A stretch of DNA of 64,000 nt, taken from Escherichia coli (GTDB lineage: Bacteria; Pseudomonadota; Gammaproteobacteria; Enterobacterales; Enterobacteriaceae). The position numbers and the translations under genes are program-made. Below the pieces are notes generated by a model. The model was not told the DNA's origin, did not search any database, and saw only the letters and a program-made list of their open reading frames with translations. The DNA is taken from NCBI RefSeq assembly GCF_024223415.1, contig NZ_CP100502.1, one strand, 5' to 3'. How positions within the stretch are numbered: the stretch's first letter is position 1; every line of letters starts with the position of its first letter. Of the stretch, positions 14,914-25,790 are shown piece after piece.

Positions 14914-15127
14914 GGGAACTCATTCTGGATGGTTACTCTGAAAGCTCATATTCTGCCACACCACGATTTGCAGCCGCCAGGCTGCCGTGGTTCATGGTTA
15001 GGTTTTGCGATAGTATATTTACGAGCTGATTAAGGTTTGGCATAGTGTGGTTCGTAAGAAAAATTACTATTATGCCTTGTCCTTAGTCAGCTTTTTTGTT
15101 TTTTGTCGTGTACAGAGAGAAGCCCCC

Positions 15128-15943
15128 ATGAATAAATCGCTCATCATTTTCGGCATCGTCAACATAACCTCGGACAGTTTCTCCGATGGAGGCCGGTATC
15201 TGGCGCCAGACGCAGCCATTGCGCAGGCGCGTAAGCTGATGGCCGAGGGGGCAGATGTGATCGACCTCGGTCCGGCATCCAGCAATCCCGACGCCGCGCC
15301 TGTTTCGTCCGACACAGAAATCGCGCGTATCGCGCCGGTGCTGGACGCGCTCAAGGCAGATGGCATTCCCGTCTCGCTCGACAGTTATCAACCCGCGACG
15401 CAAGCCTATGCCTTGTCGCGTGGTGTGGCCTATCTCAATGATATTCGCGGTTTTCCAGACGCTGCGTTCTATCCGCAATTGGCGAAATCATCTGCCAAAC
15501 TCGTCGTTATGCATTCGGTGCAAGACGGGCAGGCAGATCGGCGCGAGGCACCCGCTGGCGACATCATGGATCACATTGCGGCGTTCTTTGACGCGCGCAT
15601 CGCGGCGCTGACGGGTGCCGGTATCAAACGCAACCGCCTTGTCCTTGATCCCGGCATGGGGTTTTTTCTGGGGGCTGCTCCCGAAACCTCGCTCTCGGTG
15701 CTGGCGCGGTTCGATGAATTGCGGCTGCGCTTCGATTTGCCGGTGCTTCTGTCTGTTTCGCGCAAATCCTTTCTGCGCGCGCTCACAGGCCGTGGTCCGG
15801 GGGATGTCGGGGCCGCGACACTCGCTGCAGAGCTTGCCGCCGCCGCAGGTGGAGCTGACTTCATCCGCACACACGAGCCGCGCCCCTTGCGCGACGGGCT
15901 GGCGGTATTGGCGGCGCTGAAAGAAACCGCAAGAATTCGTTAA
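15128..15943 (+). CDS. sul2: Sulfonamide-resistant dihydropteroate synthase Sul2
   Basis: 271 aa from MNKSLIIFGIVNITSDSFSDGGRYLAPDAAIAQARKLMAEGADVIDLG. Confidence 0.95.
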   Translation: MNKSLIIFGIVNITSDSFSDGGRYLAPDAAIAQARKLMAEGADVIDLGPASSNPDAAPVSSDTEIARIAPVLDALKADGIPVSLDSYQPATQAYALSRGVAYLNDIRGFPDAAFYPQLAKSSAKLVVMHSVQDGQADRREAPAGDIMDHIAAFFDARIAALTGAGIKRNRLVLDPGMGFFLGAAPETSLSVLARFDELRLRFDLPVLLSVSRKSFLRALTGRGPGDVGAATLAAELAAAAGGADFIRTHEPRPLRDGLAVLAALKETARIR

Positions 15944-16029
15944 CTGCACATTCGGGATATTTCTCTATATTCGCGGTTCAGCAGGCATGTCCCCTTTGAG
16001 GGCGACCCGACGACAGGATAATCGACCTT

Positions 16030-16275
16030 ATGGTGCGCAAATATTTCGGCACAGACGGTATTCGTGGCAAAGCCAACGAAGGCGCGATGACGGCGGAAAC
16101 CGCCTTGCGCGTCGGCATGGCGGCTGGCCGTGTCTTTCGTCGCGGTGACCACCGCCATCGTGTCGTGATCGGCAAGGATACGCGCCTGTCGGGCTATATG
16201 CTTGAACCCGCGCTCACAGCCGGTTTCACCTCGATGGGCATGGACGTATTCCTTTTTGGCCCGCTGCCGACAACG
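16030..16275 (+). pseudogene. glmM: Truncated phosphoglucosamine mutase fragment, the usual sul2-associated relic
   Basis: [36 protein letters not shown]... then loss of similarity. Confidence 0.8.
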
Positions 16276-16507
16276 TATAGGAAGAATAAACGCCCTTTTC
16301 ACCCAAGTCCAACAGCTTTGGACCGCAGTTGACTCTTTCGACACCCCTGCGATGCAACCCAATCCGGCTGACGGGGAGCCAGCAACGCTGAAAATTTACC
16401 CTCCTCTTTCCCACTAGCGGCTCCTTTTCCGACAACCAGCACGGCGGATCCCTGCCGCGGCGCTGTGAACGCAGCATTTTGATTGGTATCGTTGGCCTTC
16501 AGGCTCG

Positions 16508-17644
16508 TCAGTCAAACAGACCCAGGAGCAGCTCAGCCGGTGGCGCCCGGCTTTCGGGTAACGCCCTGGTCCCGCTGGTTTCGGCTTTGTGCTTCAGGTG
16601 ATCAAGGATCTGCTTGATCACTATAGGGTCTTCAATGCAGGCGATGACTTTCATGGCGCCGCCGCAGCCGCTGCAGGTCTCGATGTCGATATTGAAAACA
16701 CGCTTGAGCCGTTGCGCCCATGTCATCGACGCTCGCCGTTGTGCTGGTGTTGCCGGTTCATCAGCCACCCTGACCTTGTTGCCCCTGCCCCGTTTTGCCG
16801 GCGTGACCAACGCCCGGTGCCGACTGTTGGGTGCGAACACCCCGTGGAAGCGGGTTAGGTTGACTCTGGGCTTCGGTACCAGGGCGGCCAGCCTTGCAAT
16901 GAAATCCAATGGTTCGAAAATGACGTGCGTGGTGCCGTCCCGGTACGGCGTCTTGAGCTGGTAGCGCACGTTGCCGCCTCGTGTTAACGACAGCCGCTTC
17001 TCGGATACCGCCGGGCGGCTGATGTACCGGCACAGCCGTTCGAGCTTCTTGCGTTCATCGGCCCTGGCCGCCACGCCGGCGTGCAGGCTGGACCCGGCTA
17101 CCTTGCCAATCCCGTCACCGAACGGATCACCACTGGTCGGCAGAGTTTGCAAAGTGAACACCTTTCGCCCCGCCTGTGAACCGACAGCGATACGGTAAGT
17201 GATCGAGTGCCCCAGCAGGGGTGTCATCGGGTCGTCATCCACCGCATCCGAGGCCAGATAGCTGTTTTCGACATCCCGTTCCAGCAGGCCTTGCCGTTCC
17301 AGATAGCGACCCACCCGGTGGGCGATGGTGTGCGTCAGCTGGGTGAGCTCTGGGGTGGTCGGCGCCTTGACCCAGCGGAAACGCGCTGAGCCGTGGGATT
17401 GCTCGACATACACACCGTCGAGAAACAGCATGTGGAAGTGAACATTCAGATTGAGCGCCGATCCAAAACGCTGGATCAGGGTGACCGCGCCCGTCTTGGC
17501 CACTTGGTGGGTATGGCCCGCTTTCTTGACCAGGTGCGTGGCAATGACGCGGTAAACGATGCCCAGCACCCACCCCATGATCTCGGGCCGGCTGGCAAAC
17601 AGGAAACGCAGCTGAAACGGGAAGCTCAACACCCACTGACGCAT
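16508..17644 (-). CDS. IS91-family ISCR2-like transposase, probably lacking the N-terminal zinc-binding region
   Basis: 378-aa ORF with HFH (HUH) and YxxxY motifs and ISCR-type C-terminus IDIETCSGCGGAMKVIACIEDPIVIKQILDHL; adjacent to sul2 and truncated glmM. Confidence 0.7.
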   Translation of the reverse strand: MRQWVLSFPFQLRFLFASRPEIMGWVLGIVYRVIATHLVKKAGHTHQVAKTGAVTLIQRFGSALNLNVHFHMLFLDGVYVEQSHGSARFRWVKAPTTPELTQLTHTIAHRVGRYLERQGLLERDVENSYLASDAVDDDPMTPLLGHSITYRIAVGSQAGRKVFTLQTLPTSGDPFGDGIGKVAGSSLHAGVAARADERKKLERLCRYISRPAVSEKRLSLTRGGNVRYQLKTPYRDGTTHVIFEPLDFIARLAALVPKPRVNLTRFHGVFAPNSRHRALVTPAKRGRGNKVRVADEPATPAQRRASMTWAQRLKRVFNIDIETCSGCGGAMKVIACIEDPIVIKQILDHLKHKAETSGTRALPESRAPPAELLLGLFD

Positions 17645-17971
17645 GGGTTGTTCGTCCTGGACGGCGAACCCGGCAAAGCTCCTGTAACATTGCTTCTTCC
17701 TGTTTTGTTAGCGTGACTGTCACGCTAGCGCCTTCCTCTTTGAGTCGCGCGCGGCGCCGGGCCTGGCGAATACGGGCTTGTTCACGCTGTCGGTCATTCA
17801 TATTTTTCCTCCACGTGACTGTCACGTTGAATTAAACTGGGCATTACCCCTGCGGGGCCGTTCTGCCGTGCTGCGCATCGAGCCGCTACGCGTCTCGCCC
17901 CTTCGGGCGGCGGCCACTAATGCCTCCGGCCTGCGGCCTCCGCGCTTCGCTTGTGACGATATCTGAATCGT

Positions 17972-17988
17972 TATATACTGTGTATATA
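17972..17988. promoter_or_regulatory. Palindromic operator-like site TATATAC-N3-GTATATA upstream of the toxin-antitoxin operon
   Basis: Perfect 7-bp inverted arms about 25 bp upstream of the antitoxin start. Confidence 0.4.
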
Positions 17989-18010
17989 CGTAGTAATGAC
18001 GAGGTGATAA

Positions 18011-18280
18011 ATGGCACAGGTTAATATGAGTTTAAGAATCGACGCTGAACTGAAGGATGCTTTTATGGCCGCTGCAAAAAGCATGGACCGTAATGGCTCT
18101 CAGTTAATTCGGGATTTTATGCGCCAGACCGTTGAACGGCAGCATAATACCTGGTTCCGTGACCAGGTTGAGGCAGGACGTCAGCAACTCGAGCGCGGCG
18201 ATGTGCTTCCCCATGACATGGTCGAATCTTCCGCTGCTGCATGGCGGGATGAAATGAGCAGGAAGGTTGCCGGTAAATGA
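18011..18280 (+). CDS. Antitoxin, ParD/RelB-like (YacA-like of IncI plasmids)
   Basis: 89-aa ORF with ribbon-helix-helix-like N-terminus; 4-nt overlap with downstream toxin gene. Confidence 0.7.
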   Translation: MAQVNMSLRIDAELKDAFMAAAKSMDRNGSQLIRDFMRQTVERQHNTWFRDQVEAGRQQLERGDVLPHDMVESSAAAWRDEMSRKVAGK

Positions 18281-18558
18281 TGGAGATATTCTGGACCATG
18301 CTGGCCAGCCAGGACAGGAAGCGCATTCGTAAGTACATTGCGGAGCAGAACCTGATGGCCGCCATTGAACTGGACGAACGGATTGGTTATTCAGCCAGCA
18401 GCCTGGCCGGGCAGCCGTATAAAGGCCGCAACGGTCGTGTGGAAGGTACCCGGGAACTGGTTATTCACCCGCATTTTGTTCTGGTTTATGAGGTCGACAG
18501 CCAGTGGGGAAAAGTGTATATCCTGCGCGTGTTGCATACTGCACAGAAGTGGCCATAG
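18277..18558 (+). CDS. Toxin, RelE/ParE superfamily (YacB-like)
   Basis: 93-aa ORF translationally coupled to the antitoxin; typical RelE/ParE size and composition. Confidence 0.7.
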   Translation: MMEIFWTMLASQDRKRIRKYIAEQNLMAAIELDERIGYSASSLAGQPYKGRNGRVEGTRELVIHPHFVLVYEVDSQWGKVYILRVLHTAQKWP

Positions 18559-18597
18559 AGGGGCTGTCCGGATATAAGGAAAGGAGATGCAATAACC

Positions 18598-19446
18598 ATG
18601 AATAATGATGAGCTGGCCACCAGACGTGCGCAGGCGATTGCCGAAGACAGGTGTTTCTCGAAAGGACGTTTGCGCGATGAATTCAGAATGAAACCAGCCC
18701 CCGGTGCTGAGCCGGTTAAGTGGTATAAAAATAGTTATGGTGGCAGGTTCGCTGTATACCGAATTGCAGACTGTGTTCCGATGCGTGAGAAACGCCCTCT
18801 GACGAGTAAACAACAGCTGGCTGGCCAGCGGCTTTCCGTTTTATCCCGACTAAACAGCACCAGTGGCCGGATGGCACGGCAGGCATATGACTGGCTGAGT
18901 CTGGCACCACTCTTTCTGGATACTGAAACGACAGGACTGGATAATACCGCGGAAGCCCTGGAAATCGGCCTGACCGATGCGGCCGGTCAGGTGGTATTTG
19001 AAACCAGGCTGAAGCCCACGGTCGCCATCGGGGCGCAGGCCGCCGCCGTGCATGGTATCAGTGAGCAGGCTCTCTGCGGCGCACCATCATGGACAGATGT
19101 GGCGCGGCAACTGCGTCATGCAATCGGGGACCGACCAGTAATTATCTTTAATGCCCGGTTCGACATCCGCATTCTGAAACAGACTGCTGCCGCACATAGC
19201 GATCCGGCTGACTGGCTGGAAGAACTGACGGTATATTGTGCGATGGAGCTGGCTGCAGGATATTATGGGGCCACCAACCGCTATGGCACGATTTCACTGG
19301 CCTGTGCTGCCAGTCAGGCCGGACTGACCTGGGAAGGGCAGGCACACTCAGCGATCGCCGACGCACGGATGACGGCAGGGGTGGTAAACGCTATTGCTGC
19401 ATATCATCTGGAACTGCTGCAGGAACAGGCACGGCTGAAAATCTGA
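18598..19446 (+). CDS. DEDD-family 3'-5' exonuclease (DnaQ-like) with N-terminal extension
   Basis: Exo I motif FLDTETTGL; 282 aa; strong SD AAGGAGA. Confidence 0.75.
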   Translation: MNNDELATRRAQAIAEDRCFSKGRLRDEFRMKPAPGAEPVKWYKNSYGGRFAVYRIADCVPMREKRPLTSKQQLAGQRLSVLSRLNSTSGRMARQAYDWLSLAPLFLDTETTGLDNTAEALEIGLTDAAGQVVFETRLKPTVAIGAQAAAVHGISEQALCGAPSWTDVARQLRHAIGDRPVIIFNARFDIRILKQTAAAHSDPADWLEELTVYCAMELAAGYYGATNRYGTISLACAASQAGLTWEGQAHSAIADARMTAGVVNAIAAYHLELLQEQARLKI

Positions 19447-19517
19447 CCGCCTGGCCTGTATACCGCAATCATTTACGTTATCCAGACGTAAATCCGCCGC
19501 TTGTTGCTGTCAGCATG

Positions 19518-19549
19518 TTAATGCTAATGTATGTGTACATTAGCATTAA
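19518..19549. repeat. 32-bp perfect palindrome TTAATGCTAATGTAT-GTG-TACATTAGCATTAA (copy 1)
   Basis: Read directly; near-identical copy at 20069-20108. Confidence 0.8.
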
Positions 19550-19562
19550 TGAGGGATGATAT

Positions 19563-20036
19563 GTGAGAGACAAAACCAGGGAGGCCATGCGGCTTTTTTT
19601 AGGCGGCAGGTGCTACACGGCTGAAAAACTTGAAAAGGATTATCTGGCTGAAGTGGCTAATTACAGTAACGACCGCTGGGAAGCACCGCAACGTGCCTCA
19701 CGCCTGGCTGCCAGCGTAAAGCGTTACAAGACATCAGAAATGCTGCGCTTTATTTTTGCTACCATTGCCTACGATCCCGATCCAGATTTAACCCCGCTAA
19801 CTGTGAGACGTTTGTGCAAGGCATTGTTCGGCAGAACCGGAAGCCAGTGGCTGGTTGTTGAAGTTTTTGGGGAGAAGGGGCGTCAGCACCGCAGCGCGGA
19901 CAGCAATCCGGAGATGGTGGAAAAAATGGCTGCCAGATATCGTCATGCCGCCGAACTACACTGGTCCGCAACGCTGGCAGAAATTGAACGGGTAAAGCGG
20001 CTTTATCAGACGAAAATTAAGAAATCCAAAAAATAA
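19563..20036 (+). CDS. Hypothetical protein bracketed by two copies of a long palindrome
   Basis: 157-aa ORF (GTG, or ATG at 19587); no recognisable domain. Confidence 0.5.
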   Translation: MRDKTREAMRLFLGGRCYTAEKLEKDYLAEVANYSNDRWEAPQRASRLAASVKRYKTSEMLRFIFATIAYDPDPDLTPLTVRRLCKALFGRTGSQWLVVEVFGEKGRQHRSADSNPEMVEKMAARYRHAAELHWSATLAEIERVKRLYQTKIKKSKK

Positions 20037-20068
20037 GTGGGTTGACTGCCATTGTTGTTCTTCTCCTT

Positions 20069-20108
20069 CATCATTAATGTTAATGTATGCATACATTAGC
20101 ATTAATGA
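20069..20108. repeat. Near-perfect palindrome (copy 2) downstream of the 19563-20036 ORF
   Basis: TCATTAATGTTAATGTATGCATACATTAGCATTAATGATG. Confidence 0.8.
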
Positions 20109-20170
20109 TGGTGCGTTAAAGTATCACTGGTATAATCTGGTAAAGAACATATTGAGAATGAGAACTTATC

Positions 20171-20404
20171 ATGTCGTCACGCAACTCTGTACATGATTTT
20201 ATAATGCTGCTCCCGGCGCTGCTGTTGGTTGGGTGGTTAGTTTTGGTGATAATTCTCATGTTTAGGGATGATAAATGTGACAAAACTTACCGTGAAGGTT
20301 CGTTTCCCGAATTTATTTGTCTCCATTCTGATCGCTCGTCACTTCGAGAAACCGATTCTGAGAGACTCATTGTCAAATATACAGAAATAAAATCACAAAA
20401 ATAG
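20171..20404 (+). CDS. Small predicted membrane protein (uncertain)
   Basis: 77-aa ORF with hydrophobic N-terminal helix; AT-rich; weak SD. Confidence 0.3.
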   Translation: MSSRNSVHDFIMLLPALLLVGWLVLVIILMFRDDKCDKTYREGSFPEFICLHSDRSSLRETDSERLIVKYTEIKSQK

Positions 20405-20778
20405 GTAAAACCAATAATACTATAGCTAAAAAATAGTTACTTTTCTGTATCACCCTGTCTCTCTCTGCTTTTTCATGGCTACTGTCATATTTATGTCTGT
20501 TGCGCGGTTTTGTTACTTTTTCATGACCGAACCCGAAATTTTGCGCGTCAATAAGAGACGTTGTGTAAACTCAGTCCTTTTATCTGGCAGGTTAACCCCT
20601 ATCAATCTTAGGATGAAACCACGCCATCCTCTGTTTGCCTGGTTATTAATTTCATAAAGACGATTGTTTTCCTCTCGTAGTTTTGTCCACTCTAAACAAA
20701 GTGTTATATCATCCAGTTCTGTGATGTGTTTCACTTTTCCATTGACAGTTACAGTGTTTATTCCATTTCCTGTGAGCA

Positions 20779-21312
20779 TCATCTTATGCCTTTTTTATCT
20801 TCATTTGGGACCGTGCTTTTCTTCGGAGTATCACTATTCGTTAACTGCTGTTTATCAATAAAATTCCTGATGTTATCAAGTGCTTCCTTTGTTTTTAGAA
20901 TGCGCTTGATATCCATTTCATCCCGCCCGGTCATTCTTTTTCCGGACAAAAGACGCTCAAGAAGCTCCTGTTTCGCATCAGGAGAATCTTTGGCGAGATC
21001 CATCAGGTTAAGCAAATCTTCACGATCGAGAGGAAAGAAGTATTTTACAAAATACTTGAAAAGCGAAAGAAAGTAGTATGCTGTCCATGCAATACAGAAA
21101 CCGATTCTGAGAAACTCATTGTCAACTATACAGAAATACAGGTATACAATCAGGAGAATAGGTAAAATCCATAATACTATAGCTAAAAAAATATATACGG
21201 GGATCAGGCGTCTGTATGCCCGTTCATGTTTATTCAGGATGAATAAAATCTTCTCCGCTTCTGAATCACACATAACATTCTCTTCCCATTTTTTCTGATA
21301 CGTAATGTCCAC
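20779..21312 (-). CDS. Predicted two-helix membrane protein
   Basis: 177-aa AT-rich ORF; hydrophobic stretch LIPVYIFLAIVLWILPILLIVYLYFCIV; contains one copy of a roughly 90-bp direct repeat. Confidence 0.5.
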   Translation of the reverse strand: MDITYQKKWEENVMCDSEAEKILFILNKHERAYRRLIPVYIFLAIVLWILPILLIVYLYFCIVDNEFLRIGFCIAWTAYYFLSLFKYFVKYFFPLDREDLLNLMDLAKDSPDAKQELLERLLSGKRMTGRDEMDIKRILKTKEALDNIRNFIDKQQLTNSDTPKKSTVPNEDKKGIR

Positions 21313-21328
21313 CTGTTATCAGGAGTGT

Positions 21329-21931
21329 TTATTGCCCAGAAATATTCTCCTGCTGTGCCTGCGTCCTGAGCCACTTTTGTTCTAATGTCGCCAGTCTGCG
21401 ACCGGCACTCTGTGCTTCAGAGTCTGAGACCTGCCCTTTGGGGTGACCATCCAGGCCATAACGTGGGACGCCGGCGACAGCTGTCCGCTGCAGATATACG
21501 CGGCGGGATGTGATGCAGGACACTGCACAGAGCCATTCGTCCATGGTCAGTTCTGTCTCCGGGTGTTCTGCCAGAAATGCCGAAATATCATTGCTTATGC
21601 CAATTTTCAGGGGAATAAATCCACCACCTTCAGCACGAAGATGAGGAAACAGGGCCTTTATTTTTTCCACGCACTCGTGAGTATACTCACGGGTCCAGTG
21701 GGAGGGACGTGGAAAACGGTGTCTTTTCTTTTTCTTCTTCCTGGCTGGCGCTTCGGGGATATGTGTTTCGACGGCAGATGAATTTATTCCGGCGGGGGCT
21801 GATTCTGCCGTCTGTTCAGTAAATACAGGTGCGATAATATCTGTTTTTTCGGATAAGGACGGTGGCGAAAAAGTACGACGTTTTTTCACCACAATGACGG
21901 GAGTTTTCCTTTCTTCCTGATTTTTTCCCAT
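21329..21931 (-). CDS. FinO/ProQ-domain RNA-binding protein (FopA-like)
   Basis: 200-aa ORF; basic N-terminus; C-terminal region resembling the FinO fold (KIKALFPHLRAEGGGFIPLKIGISNDISAFLAEHPE). Confidence 0.55.
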   Translation of the reverse strand: MGKNQEERKTPVIVVKKRRTFSPPSLSEKTDIIAPVFTEQTAESAPAGINSSAVETHIPEAPARKKKKKRHRFPRPSHWTREYTHECVEKIKALFPHLRAEGGGFIPLKIGISNDISAFLAEHPETELTMDEWLCAVSCITSRRVYLQRTAVAGVPRYGLDGHPKGQVSDSEAQSAGRRLATLEQKWLRTQAQQENISGQ

Positions 21932-22287
21932 AAATACCTCGGCTGGCTGGTTTTACTCTTTAATAATATCACAATCCATAAATTAGTAAATTTCCCATCA
22001 GGTGATTTTTCATGGCTAATAAGTCCATTCTCTGAATATTTATACTCGAGGTAGTTACAGTTATGGCGTGACAGTCGAATTGATATTCTACTGAACCCTG
22101 ACAGAAACATGGTTGATATATTCTATCACTTTAATGTTGTCATGATATAAATAAAAACAATTCATTTGAAAGGATATCAGAAGAAGATATCGGGGCGCAC
22201 AGTTCATCTCTGCCTTTGTTTCATGGGGGGTTCTTTGTATATTTTACTTACTGTTTAAGCATGTACATAAGGAGTGCTTTCATTATG

Positions 22288-23631
22288 CCAATGATACTTG
22301 TAAAGAAGAATCCCCGGGGCAAAGTGATTCGGGAGCTTAGCAGTGAGGAAGAGACTGCAGTAAAGACGGTCTGTGGACTGAAAAGGCCAGCAACCATGGC
22401 ACAACATAACCTGGCCAATGATCTTCTCCGGGAAATGCGTGAGTATGATGCATGGTTACAGTGTGACTGTATTCCGGGAGATTCGCCGGCCATGAATTTT
22501 GCTGCTCTTAAAAACAATACGGGTACTCTTTATCTGTCCAGTTTTAATCATGAGCATGCACCTGAATGCCCCATGTATCGTCAGTTATCCGGAAATGAAG
22601 AGGAAACATCCTTCGGAGCAAGCCGGCATCCCGTTAGCACCCGTATAAATTACAGAAACTTTTTACCACCTGATGACAGTAATTCTGTTATCAGACTGCA
22701 GGCCCGCTCTGCTTACCATAATGGTGAGCGCTCCTCCGTTCGCAAGAAACGTCCGCGCCTTGGCCGTTTACTCCTGTCGCTTATTGAAGATGCAGGGCTG
22801 AATAAACTGGATTCCCTGGCTAATCCCCGTATCCGGACTAATTATCGTGAGTGTCTTGATGCCATACGGCAGGTTACACTACAGCAGGAGTATATTCGGG
22901 GAAGAGCCTTATCTGAAATTATCCATTTCCGGCCAGGAATGTCTGAAAGGTCTCAGGAGCGGTTAATGGAAACGCTGGAGAATTCAGAACGACACTGGCC
23001 TGCCAGAAGAAAGCATATGTTCTTTCAGATTTTTATGGCGCAGCACATCTGTCGTGATGCTGTGGAAATTCACTGGGCGAACGGTAATATTCAGGTCATC
23101 AGACCTGTGCGGGGGATCAGTATTAATGGTGAAGCGCAGGGCGGAATACGTCCCCCTTACTGGGTTATTCTTGCTTTTTGCCGGAGTGCCGATGGCAGAA
23201 TCATCTGCAGTGAAGGGTATGCTCATGCTCTTTATCAACTGACATGTCCGGTGCCTGTGGACAGCAAACTGGAACGAAACACGCTCACTGCTCTTCTGAA
23301 TGTGGCCAGCTGGCTTAAAAGAAAGCCAGGTACGCCGGAATTAAGTCTGGAAAGGCCCCTGTTTGATACAGAAGTTTATGTTAATGGTGAAAAGAAATAT
23401 GTACTGCCGGATTTCATTGTCACAGCAAGGGCTCCTGACGGAAAGACGGCCAGAGTGGTCATCGAAACGATGGGATATGAAGACAGTGATTACTGCGCGA
23501 GAAAATCCAGGCAGCATACCGGCATGAAGCAGATTGGTGTTCTGCATACCGATCCACCGAAATGGCTGGATAACGATCATCCCCCTTTTAAGAAACATAT
23601 GTACGGTGTTTTTATGCATCTCAGGTACTGA
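22288..23631 (+). CDS. Hypothetical 447-aa protein, Cys/His-rich N-terminus and possible PD-(D/E)xK-like C-terminal motif
   Basis: Start MPMILVKKNPRG with SD; CDCIPG...HEHAPEC; C-terminal LPDFIV...VVIETMGYEDSDYCARK. Confidence 0.6.
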   Translation, partial: PMILVKKNPRGKVIRELSSEEETAVKTVCGLKRPATMAQHNLANDLLREMREYDAWLQCDCIPGDSPAMNFAALKNNTGTLYLSSFNHEHAPECPMYRQLSGNEEETSFGASRHPVSTRINYRNFLPPDDSNSVIRLQARSAYHNGERSSVRKKRPRLGRLLLSLIEDAGLNKLDSLANPRIRTNYRECLDAIRQVTLQQEYIRGRALSEIIHFRPGMSERSQERLMETLENSERHWPARRKHMFFQIFMAQHICRDAVEIHWANGNIQVIRPVRGISINGEAQGGIRPPYWVILAFCRSADGRIICSEGYAHALYQLTCPVPVDSKLERNTLTALLNVASWLKRKPGTPELSLERPLFDTEVYVNGEKKYVLPDFIVTARAPDGKTARVVIETMGYEDSDYCARKSRQHTGMKQIGVLHTDPPKWLDNDHPPFKKHMYGVFMHLRY

Positions 23632-23807
23632 GATATTTTGTGGCTCAGTTCTGTAACTTTTCCCGTAACATTGTCTGTTGTTACGGGAAAGTCCGGTTTT
23701 TGTATTGCACCAGAGAATACCCAGACTGTGATGCTGCCACAGTGTCAGCAGGCTTTCTGAACGGTATAACACCACTTCATGTTAATGATAATTACTATCA
23801 TTAAATC

Positions 23808-23868
23808 TTGACATGCCATTTTCTCCTTAATAAATTAGTACTGTATATGTATCCATATACGTAAGCAG
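23808..23868 (+). promoter_or_regulatory. Colicin promoter (-35 TTGACA) with overlapping LexA/SOS operator
   Basis: TTGACA at 23808-23813; TACTGTATATGTATCCATATACGTAAGCAGT at 23838-23868. Confidence 0.6.
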
Positions 23869-23909
23869 TTAATTCATTTGTTTTCCTCAGAGGATGAAGG
23901 AGATACCGA

Positions 23910-25790
23910 ATGTCTGACCCTGTACGTATTACAAATCCCGGTGCAGAATCGCTGGGATATGATTCAGATGGCCATGAAATTATGGCCGTTGATATTTATG
24001 TAAACCCTCCACGTGTCGATGTCTTTCATGGTACCCCGCCTGCATGGAGTTCCTTCGGGAACAAAACCATCTGGGGTGGAAACGAGTGGGTCGATGATTC
24101 CCCAACCCGAAGTGATATCGAAAAAAGGGACAAGGAAATCACAGCGTACAAAAACACGCTCAGCGCGCAGCAGAAAGAGAATGAGAATAAGCGTACTGAA
24201 GCTGGAAAACGCCTTTCTGCGGCAATTGCTGCAAGGGAAAAAGATGAAAACACACTGAAAACACTCCGTGCCGGAAACGCAGATGCCGCTGATATTACAC
24301 GACAGGAGTTCAGACTCCTGCAGGCAGAGCTGAGAGAATACGGATTCCGTACTGAAATCGCCGGATATGATGCCCTCCGGCTGCATACAGAGAGCCGGAT
24401 GCTGTTTGCTGATGCTGATTCTCTTCGTATATCTCCCCGCGAGGCCAGGTCGTTAATCGAACAGGCTGAAAAACGGCAGAAGGATGCGCAGAACGCAGAC
24501 AAGAAGGCCGCTGATATGCTTGCTGAATACGAGCGCAGAAAAGGTATTCTGGACACGCGGTTGTCAGAGCTGGAAAAAAATGGCGGGGCAGCCCTTGCCG
24601 TTCTTGATGCACAACAGGCCCGTCTGCTCGGGCAGCAGACACGGAATGACAGGGCCATTTCAGAGGCCCGGAATAAACTCAGTTCGGTGACGGAATCGCT
24701 TAAGACGGCCCGTAATGCATTAACCAGAGCTGAACAACAGCTGACGCAACAGAAAAACACGCCTGACGGCAAAACGATAGTTTCCCCTGAAAAATTCCCG
24801 GGGCGTTCATCAACAAATCATTCTATTGTTGTGAGTGGTGATCCGAGGTTTGCCGGTACGATAAAAATCACAACCAGCGCGGTCATCGATAACCGTGCAA
24901 ACCTGAATTATCTTCTGACCCATTCCGGTCTGGACTATAAACGCAATATTCTGAATGACCGGAATCCGGTGGTGACAGAGGATGTGGAAGGTGACAAGAA
25001 AATTTATAATGCTGAAGTTGCTGAATGGGATAAGTTACGGCAACGATTGCTTGATGCCAGAAATAAAATCACCTCTGCTGAATCTGCGATAAATTCGGCG
25101 AGAAATAACGTCAGTGCCAGAACAAATGAACAAAAGCATGCAAATGACGCTCTTAATGCCCTGTTGAAGGAAAAAGAGAATATCCGTAGCCAGCTTGCTG
25201 ACATCAATCAGAAAATAGCTGAAGAGAAAAGAAAAAGGGATGAAATAAATATGGTAAAGGATGCCATAAAACTCACCTCTGATTTCTACAGAACGATATA
25301 TGATGAGTTCGGTAAACAAGCATCCGAACTTGCTAAGGAGCTGGCTTCTGTATCTCAAGGGAAACAGATTAAGAGTGTGGATGATGCACTGAACGCTTTT
25401 GATAAATTCCGTAATAATCTGAACAAGAAATATAACATACAAGATCGCATGGCCATTTCTAAAGCCCTGGAAGCTATTAATCAGGTCCATATGGCGGAGA
25501 ATTTTAAGCTGTTCAGTAAGGCATTTGGTTTTACCGGAAAAGTTATTGATCGTTATGATGTTGCTGTGGAGTTACAAAAGGCTGTAAAAACGGACAACTG
25601 GCGTCCATTTTTTGTAAAACTTGAATCACTGGCAGCAGGAAGAGCTGCTTCAGCAGTTACAGCATGGGCGTTTTCCGTCATGCTGGGAACCCCTGTAGGT
25701 ATTCTGGGTTTTGCAATTATTATGGCGGCTGTGAGTGCGCTTGTTAATGATAAGTTTATTGAGCAGGTCAATAAACTTATTGGTATCTGA
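23910..25790 (+). CDS. cib: Pore-forming colicin of the Ia/Ib group (immunity partner favours Ib)
   Basis: 626-aa ORF MSDPVRITNPGAESLGYDSDGHEIMAVDIYVNPPRVDVFHG...; hydrophobic channel domain at C-terminus. Confidence 0.9.
   Translation: MSDPVRITNPGAESLGYDSDGHEIMAVDIYVNPPRVDVFHGTPPAWSSFGNKTIWGGNEWVDDSPTRSDIEKRDKEITAYKNTLSAQQKENENKRTEAGKRLSAAIAAREKDENTLKTLRAGNADAADITRQEFRLLQAELREYGFRTEIAGYDALRLHTESRMLFADADSLRISPREARSLIEQAEKRQKDAQNADKKAADMLAEYERRKGILDTRLSELEKNGGAALAVLDAQQARLLGQQTRNDRAISEARNKLSSVTESLKTARNALTRAEQQLTQQKNTPDGKTIVSPEKFPGRSSTNHSIVVSGDPRFAGTIKITTSAVIDNRANLNYLLTHSGLDYKRNILNDRNPVVTEDVEGDKKIYNAEVAEWDKLRQRLLDARNKITSAESAINSARNNVSARTNEQKHANDALNALLKEKENIRSQLADINQKIAEEKRKRDEINMVKDAIKLTSDFYRTIYDEFGKQASELAKELASVSQGKQIKSVDDALNAFDKFRNNLNKKYNIQDRMAISKALEAINQVHMAENFKLFSKAFGFTGKVIDRYDVAVELQKAVKTDNWRPFFVKLESLAAGRAASAVTAWAFSVMLGTPVGILGFAIIMAAVSALVNDKFIEQVNKLIGI

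Follow-up and report, generated by a model that had tools for sequence, protein, structure and literature searches.

The stretch of Escherichia coli DNA analyzed here, 64,000 nucleotides long and referred to below as the window, is by sequence comparison IncI1 plasmid backbone. Over the 2.8 kb surrounding the feature under study, the window matches many IncI1 plasmids at 100% identity, among them ColIb-P9 (NC_002122.1; window position = ColIb-P9 position + 15616), and ~470 PLSDB records carry at least 80% of this whole region (19500-22300). The local gene order starts on the plus strand with the toxin-antitoxin pair yacA-yacB, a 3'-5' exonuclease gene, yadA, and the 77-aa open reading frame (ORF) yaeA (20171-20404). 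A block of three genes follows on the minus strand, beyond which yagA lies on the plus strand. The first gene of the block, fopA (21329-21931), encodes an RNA chaperone of the ProQ/FinO family; it was renamed from yafB, and its product assists and speeds the antisense pairing of Inc with repZ (PMC7491321). It is followed by yafA (20779-21273), which encodes a 164-aa membrane protein of unknown function, and then by a gene for a hypothetical protein of 88/89 aa (20513-20779). Pfam, NCBIfam, and PADLOC gave no family match for YafA, the 89-aa protein, or YaeA. Our literature search returned nothing on yaeA or on the repeat described below, and the FopA papers are silent about the locus.

An earlier note on this DNA had described the yafA product as a membrane protein of 177 aa. 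The protein is indeed a membrane protein, but 164 aa is the better length. Diverged yafA alleles have CTG in place of the GTG at 21312 that would open the 177-aa ORF. The ATG at 21273, in contrast, is conserved, has GGGAAGAG ahead of it, and gives the 164-aa protein that PGAP annotates; since only the ATG is kept, we prefer the 164-aa annotation. Judging from its relatives in sequence collections, YafA is a widespread, uncharacterized membrane protein of conjugative plasmids. The homologue at the same position in pESBL is annotated "Protein YafA," and yafA was among the genes not required in the pESBL transposon data (PMC4288162). By tblastn, homologues of YafA occur in 2800 plasmid records, ~1500 of them at <60% identity. 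Among the matches listed, those at 31 to 49% identity lie mostly beside traR in F-type transfer regions, and one of them is labeled yfiA.

One copy of a direct repeat of ~90 bp lies inside yafA, and the other lies on the far side of the 89-aa gene, which thus sits between the two. The repeat had previously been placed at 20351-20435 and 21100-21192; it is real, and those coordinates are a few bases off. We measured copy 1 at 20347-20433 (87 bp) and copy 2, on the minus strand, at 21096-21190 (95 bp). Their alignment spans 95 columns, interrupted once by an 8-nt gap in copy 1, and the identity is 83% with the gap counted and ~88% of aligned bases. When either copy was used as a blastn query against the whole window, its partner was recovered at an E value of ~1e-24 and every other match had an E value of 0.02 or worse, which sets the number of copies at exactly two and excludes chance as their source. 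Beyond the repeat, local (Smith-Waterman) scores of the flanks on either side were at the level of shuffled sequences (p values of 0.25 and 0.65), and the unrelated flanks therefore leave a sharply bounded pair of ~90 bp. A possible extension of homology into the flanks ("HEKAERDR" versus "HERAYRR," weak in tblastn) was rejected, its Smith-Waterman score being no better than those of shuffles. Copy 2 encodes YafA residues 28 to 60 (IFLAIVLWILPILLIVYLYFCIVDNEFLRIGF), which make up most of the first transmembrane helix and the start of the next loop; the earlier description of this copy as encoding the hydrophobic core of a minus-strand membrane protein was accurate.

What had been overlooked is that, on the opposite strand, the yaeA ORF has its 3' end in copy 1. 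This ORF, whose name comes from one UniRef entry and which PGAP usually leaves unannotated, encodes a protein whose single transmembrane helix is N-terminal. The final 19 codons of yaeA and its stop codon lie inside copy 1 on the plus strand, where the residues SLR are followed by ETDSERLIVKYTEIKSQK and then the stop. Since copy 1 provides the end and the stop codon of yaeA, it always travels with yaeA; yaeA was always seen with the yafA-derived tail and never without it, and the C-terminal tail of YaeA varies between lineages. Inspection of the sequence shows a perfect extended -10 element, TGGTATAAT (20128-20136, plus strand), which lies within the conserved yaeA module, 35 nt before the yaeA ATG. 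It is conserved in lineages L003, L010, and L011 and is kept in all yaeA-bearing architectures, while the -35 region upstream differs among them; our consensus promoter scan missed the element because its -35 is poor. Directly upstream of this promoter is a near-perfect, operator-like palindrome (20069-20110).

Related plasmids carry this region in several arrangements. That of the window (type A, ~470 PLSDB records) consists of yaeA, copy 1, a 78-bp segment that we call M (20434-20511, lying between the end of copy 1 and the 89-aa gene stop codon), the 89-aa gene, yafA, and fopA. In type C (L010, L011, L015, and L017), yaeA, copy 1, and M are followed by an acetyltransferase gene and fopA, yafA being absent. 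Type H (L012 to L014) has yaeA, copy 1, M, the acetyltransferase gene, a 156-aa yafA, and fopA, and type D (L004) has M, the acetyltransferase gene, and fopA, with yaeA and copy 1 absent. Type B (L003, IncK2/Z) is made up of yaeA, a single hybrid copy of the repeat, the N-terminal part of yafA, and fopA. A toxin-antitoxin pair precedes the 89-aa gene, yafA, and fopA in types E and G (L006 and L009), where homology to the window begins at 20511, and type F (L007 and L008) has a 62% yafA allele and fopA.

The left part of the window arrangement (yaeA, copy 1, and M) is thus common to types C and H and the right part (the 89-aa gene, yafA, and fopA) is common to type E, which makes the arrangement a mosaic; the two parts meet no more than a few bases from the stop codon of the 89-aa gene. 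M, for its part, is a mosaic module of its own, since in L004 (2501-2577) it is 100% identical, follows unrelated sequence, and lies upstream of the acetyltransferase gene without copy 1. The idea that the L004 sequence to the left of M is the 3' end of a group II intron was dropped, as it had no Rfam match. The left boundary of M is the exact end of copy 1, and several junctions fall at the same base. The acetyltransferase gene, which is of the hexapeptide type (plus strand; L013 3393-3980), and the 89-aa gene (minus strand; 20512-20759 in the window) are alternative cassettes in a slot between M and the 3' end of yafA. The 88/89-aa gene is missing from the plasmids with the hybrid copy, and the acetyltransferase gene takes its place in others.

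With respect to yafA, copy 1 corresponds to an internal stretch (approximately codons 28 to 60) and includes neither end of the gene. The 8-nt gap breaks the yafA frame, so that the homologous peptide is split over two frames on the minus strand: "...YFLAIVLLVLPIFVILFLYI," which runs into a stop, and "FYFCIFDNESLRIGF." The peptide in the yafA frame ends after "FLYI," and its continuation, "FCIFDNESLRIGF," is in a different frame. The gap sits at the CTGTATTT/CTGTATAG short tandem repeat of yafA, where the alleles of other I-complex plasmids, at 59 to 62% identity, have a 9-nt indel, and by its sequence this tandem looks like a slippage-prone spot. We considered whether copy 1 derives from one of these diverged alleles and rejected this origin; there was no blastn match to them, and copy 1 aligns with the IncI1-type allele.

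Comparing copy 1 with yafA codon by codon from the alignments, we found that none of ~9 substitutions is synonymous. All change an amino acid, those in the yafA frame being W>L, I>V, L>F, L>V, V>L, V>F, and F>S. This is the pattern expected without purifying selection, albeit from a small sample for which we estimate a P value of ~0.08 under neutrality, assuming that ~1/4 of random changes are synonymous. The peptide still looks hydrophobic because most of the changes retain T at the second codon position, and drift that retains this T preserves apparent hydrophobicity without selection. The 8-nt gap and most of the substitutions are common to five lineages with copy 1, which implies descent from one ancestral event, and these lineages later acquired further substitutions and 1-nt indels. 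Mean pairwise differences were 0.044 for copy 1, 0.041 for the rest of yaeA, and 0.026 for M, a rate for copy 1 like that of neighboring non-coding DNA. Copy 1 therefore has the hallmarks of a gene relic, namely, homology to part of an intact gene, truncation with disruption of the frame, and a record of changes and indels that lacks the imprint of purifying selection. The partial gene duplication proposed in the earlier note is correct insofar as copy 1 is homologous to an internal part of yafA; what it left out is that the copy is a dead fragment.

The same note had read copy 1 as encoding a short hydrophobic peptide on the minus strand, perhaps a small toxin-like paralogue. Such an ORF is present as described, with a GTG start and 26 aa (MIQKSNYFLAIVLLVLPIFVILFLYI; 20373-20453, minus strand). 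However, the 26-aa frame joins its GTG only if an allele has six A's at 20428-20433. Seven A's is the state of yafA itself, and alleles with seven yield MIQKSNYFFSYSIISFTYFCDCFLYI (L010) or an unrelated 55-aa ORF (L011), neither of which is a transmembrane peptide. The ORF is thus intact in two of four lineages, those of the window type and the L013 type, and since it is frameshifted in the sister lineages L010 and L011, the peptide is not conserved; the L010-type yaeA cluster is the commonest, occurring on a larger number of contigs (723) than any other. Architectures B, D, E, F, and G lack the 26-aa ORF. It had no match in Pfam (E values up to 10) or PADLOC (E values up to 1), our consensus scan listed no promoter-like site for it, and inspection by eye revealed no convincing ribosome-binding site, only a weak GAGAG upstream of the GTG.

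Given this lack of in-frame conservation, of promoter and translation signals of its own, and of a match to a toxin family, we consider it extremely unlikely that copy 1 encodes a functional 26-aa toxin-like hydrophobic peptide paralogous to the YafA transmembrane helix. The existence of the ORF with its GTG start is consistent with such a peptide, as is its retention in L013 with one conservative change, and read-through from the fopA-yafA-89aa block could transcribe it, as no terminator was found after the 89-aa gene. Weighing against these points are the frameshift in the commonest yaeA cluster, the absence of synonymous substitutions, and the fact that the frame meets its GTG only through one missing A in a homopolymer. 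The locus does share with type I toxin-antitoxin systems (Hok/Sok, PndA/PndB, TisB/IstR, Ibs/Sib, and Ldr/Rdl) a hydrophobic ORF that is very short and is overlapped by an opposite-strand convergent transcript, and a setting on a conjugative plasmid. It differs from them in that the ORF derives from the transmembrane helix of a larger gene rather than from a toxin family, and no dedicated promoter, folded 5' untranslated region, or discrete antisense RNA was found at the locus. These observations urge caution, in that short hydrophobic ORFs in AT-rich gene relics are not to be taken for toxins.

Two small features lie close to the 26-aa ORF. A mini-ORF at 20454-20486 on the minus strand, which reads MTVAMKKQRETG or MKKQRETG before its stop, has a TGA that overlaps the GTG of the 26-aa ORF (GTGA), and this overlap could allow coupled translation of the latter. 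In addition, CATGAAAAAG recurs at 20470-20479, 20517-20526, and 22007-22016 in the minus-strand sense, probably by chance.

The plasmids of type B bear on the consequences of carrying two copies. In L003, a single copy begins with the left flank of copy 1 and continues with copy-2 sequence and the right flank of copy 2, and 749 bp is absent; one hybrid copy is thus present, the outer flanks are retained, and the interval is lost. The copy-2 part is 100% identical to intact IncI1 yafA over 225 nt, the right flank of copy 2 is 99.25% identical through fopA, and a truncated yafA of 74 aa overlaps a yaeA of 81 aa. In its sequence, this merged form is the product expected of recombination between the two copies. 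Among PLSDB plasmids, 57 carry its junction, with E. coli, Salmonella, and E. fergusonii as hosts, and the junction is 100% identical in 30 of the 30 records listed; by sequence it is most likely a single event inherited by one lineage. H103, a candidate for an independent second deletion, was rejected upon finding that it has the acetyltransferase architecture rather than a merged copy. Counting against the deletion account is the position of the crossover, which would have to fall in the first (leftmost) 17 nt of the repeat, and 17 nt is short for RecA-dependent recombination.

The order of events could also have been the reverse, with the merged form, in which yaeA abuts a truncated yafA, being the older and the two-copy IncI1 form arising later as the 89aa-yafA block and M recombined in. 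The constant presence of the yafA-derived tail on yaeA fits a yaeA module that joined and truncated yafA, and all of the junctions in the region resemble cassette exchanges. We nevertheless regard this order as unlikely, since the yafA part of the merged form is identical to the intact gene over those 225 nt, yet copy 1 has drifted by ~12% and carries the 8-nt gap in every two-copy lineage. A long-standing pseudogene should differ from the live gene, so the merged form sampled here is more simply explained as a recent deletion or allelic exchange. Although the evolutionary direction between the merged and two-copy forms is not proven by these sequences, the choice concerns history only; copy 1 is a relic under either order.

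Taken together, these results make it probable that copy 1 is a non-functional yafA relic left by recombination in the mosaic region of I-complex plasmids. We propose that an 87-bp internal piece of yafA would have been left in the variable stretch that separates fopA from the replication genes (IncI1, IncB/O, IncK, and IncZ). The piece, having lost both gene ends, would have taken the frame-breaking 8-nt deletion at the short tandem repeat and drifted by ~12%, and it would merely happen to supply the last 19 codons and stop of yaeA on the opposite strand, presumably without a function of its own. Together with the matching segment of intact yafA, it would constitute a direct repeat around 749 bp, and recombination between the copies would remove the 89-aa gene along with the part of yafA that encodes the C-terminal two thirds of the protein; a product of this kind is seen in a plasmid lineage.

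As far as can be read from the DNA, the only demonstrable effect of copy 1 is structural. Far from being a conserved gene for a small toxin, the feature is a recombination scar and gene remnant of an ordinary kind. It resembles the gene remnants and scars of mosaic plasmid backbones in being a decayed, doubly truncated fragment near the intact gene with junctions at module boundaries, and the merged form resembles the direct-repeat deletions of such backbones, in which a derivative has one hybrid copy and has lost the intervening DNA. The sole quirk relative to ordinary gene remnants is that this one gives yaeA, on the opposite strand, its C-terminal tail and stop codon. The relic is of little importance beyond plasmid annotation, where it accounts for an unannotated repeat in a very common resistance-plasmid backbone and reveals that the end of the yaeA ORF falls within a yafA remnant in antisense orientation.

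Because yaeA runs in the opposite orientation, its transcript would contain ~87 nt able to pair with yafA mRNA, in a duplex with a predicted energy of -102 kcal/mol. The 3' part of this transcript might therefore act as an antisense RNA against the first-helix region of yafA and repress yafA in trans, possibly with the help of FopA. The extended -10 promoter and its operator-like palindrome point yaeA toward copy 1, and the adjoining fopA encodes a chaperone that speeds the pairing of Inc with repZ (PMC7491321). However, copy 1 is retained without any yafA in L010, L015, and L017, which counts against a role as antisense partner of yafA mRNA. Similarly, the type H yafA of L013 has lost 18 nt, which reduces the stretch alignable with copy 1 to 55 nt, and no compensating change is seen in copy 1; regulator and target thus do not consistently co-occur, nor do they co-vary. 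Around copy 1 and M, a terminator scan found none, and RNA folds gave one marginal long-range stem (z = -2.1), the others scoring at or above the shuffle mean. An Rfam scan of 15000-25000 matched no family at the copy 1 region, its sole return being a spurious mir-155 on the palindrome. Of the elements of a discrete, terminated small RNA, the promoter alone is thus present, and in any event a yaeA transcript that lacks a terminator would continue antisense into the 89-aa gene and yafA. The top FopA ligands named from the RIP-seq data are Inc, STnc1590, mgtM, and STnc700 (PMC7491321), and none of these named ligands is a transcript of this locus. Based on these data, we consider repression of yafA in trans by the yaeA transcript very unlikely.

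The locus does resemble FinP/traJ with FinO and Inc/repZ with FopA in placing a long transcript-mRNA complementarity beside a gene for a FinO-domain chaperone. In contrast to these systems, the complementarity here simply follows from the duplication of a gene fragment, a terminated stem-loop small RNA was not found, and the would-be regulator persists without its target. In a broader version, the operator-controlled yaeA transcript of the IncI1 allele would continue past copy 1, antisense to the 89-aa gene and yafA, and act as a switch; it would shut down the distal fopA operon genes in cis and would use the 87-nt copy to do so in trans. We regard this version as very unlikely indeed. Were it true, the merged-copy plasmids would be its hard-wired version, a convergent, overlapping pair of small membrane-protein genes.

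A second copy of the palindrome upstream of yaeA lies just upstream of yadA (19518-19549). Both are near perfect and 32 to 42 bp long (TTAATGYTAATGTATGYRTACATTAGCATTAA), and from their sequences they look like operators for one dimeric repressor controlling both plus-strand units. They also form a 38-bp direct repeat around yadA (19518-19555 and 20074-20111), and L011 has a single palindrome and no yadA. This difference is probably, to judge from the repeat, a second repeat-bounded indel near the first. One, and probably two, such indels help to make the segment from the replication genes to fopA a patchwork in I-complex plasmids.

As for YaeA itself, a relationship to Hok/Gef proteins was considered and set aside, "RDDKCDKTYREG" and "RKSLCEIRYRDG" being alike by eye only and Pfam returning only a sub-threshold match to DWORF. 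A protein of 81 aa encoded at 3501-3746 of L016 has a YaeA-like N terminus and transmembrane helix (~84% over 33 aa), a "KCD..Y" motif in common with YaeA, and a C terminus that differs from that of YaeA; its gene lies downstream of genes for topoisomerase III, hha, and hns on an unrelated plasmid-like contig. At the sequence level, this relative hints that yaeA belongs to a real small-protein family.
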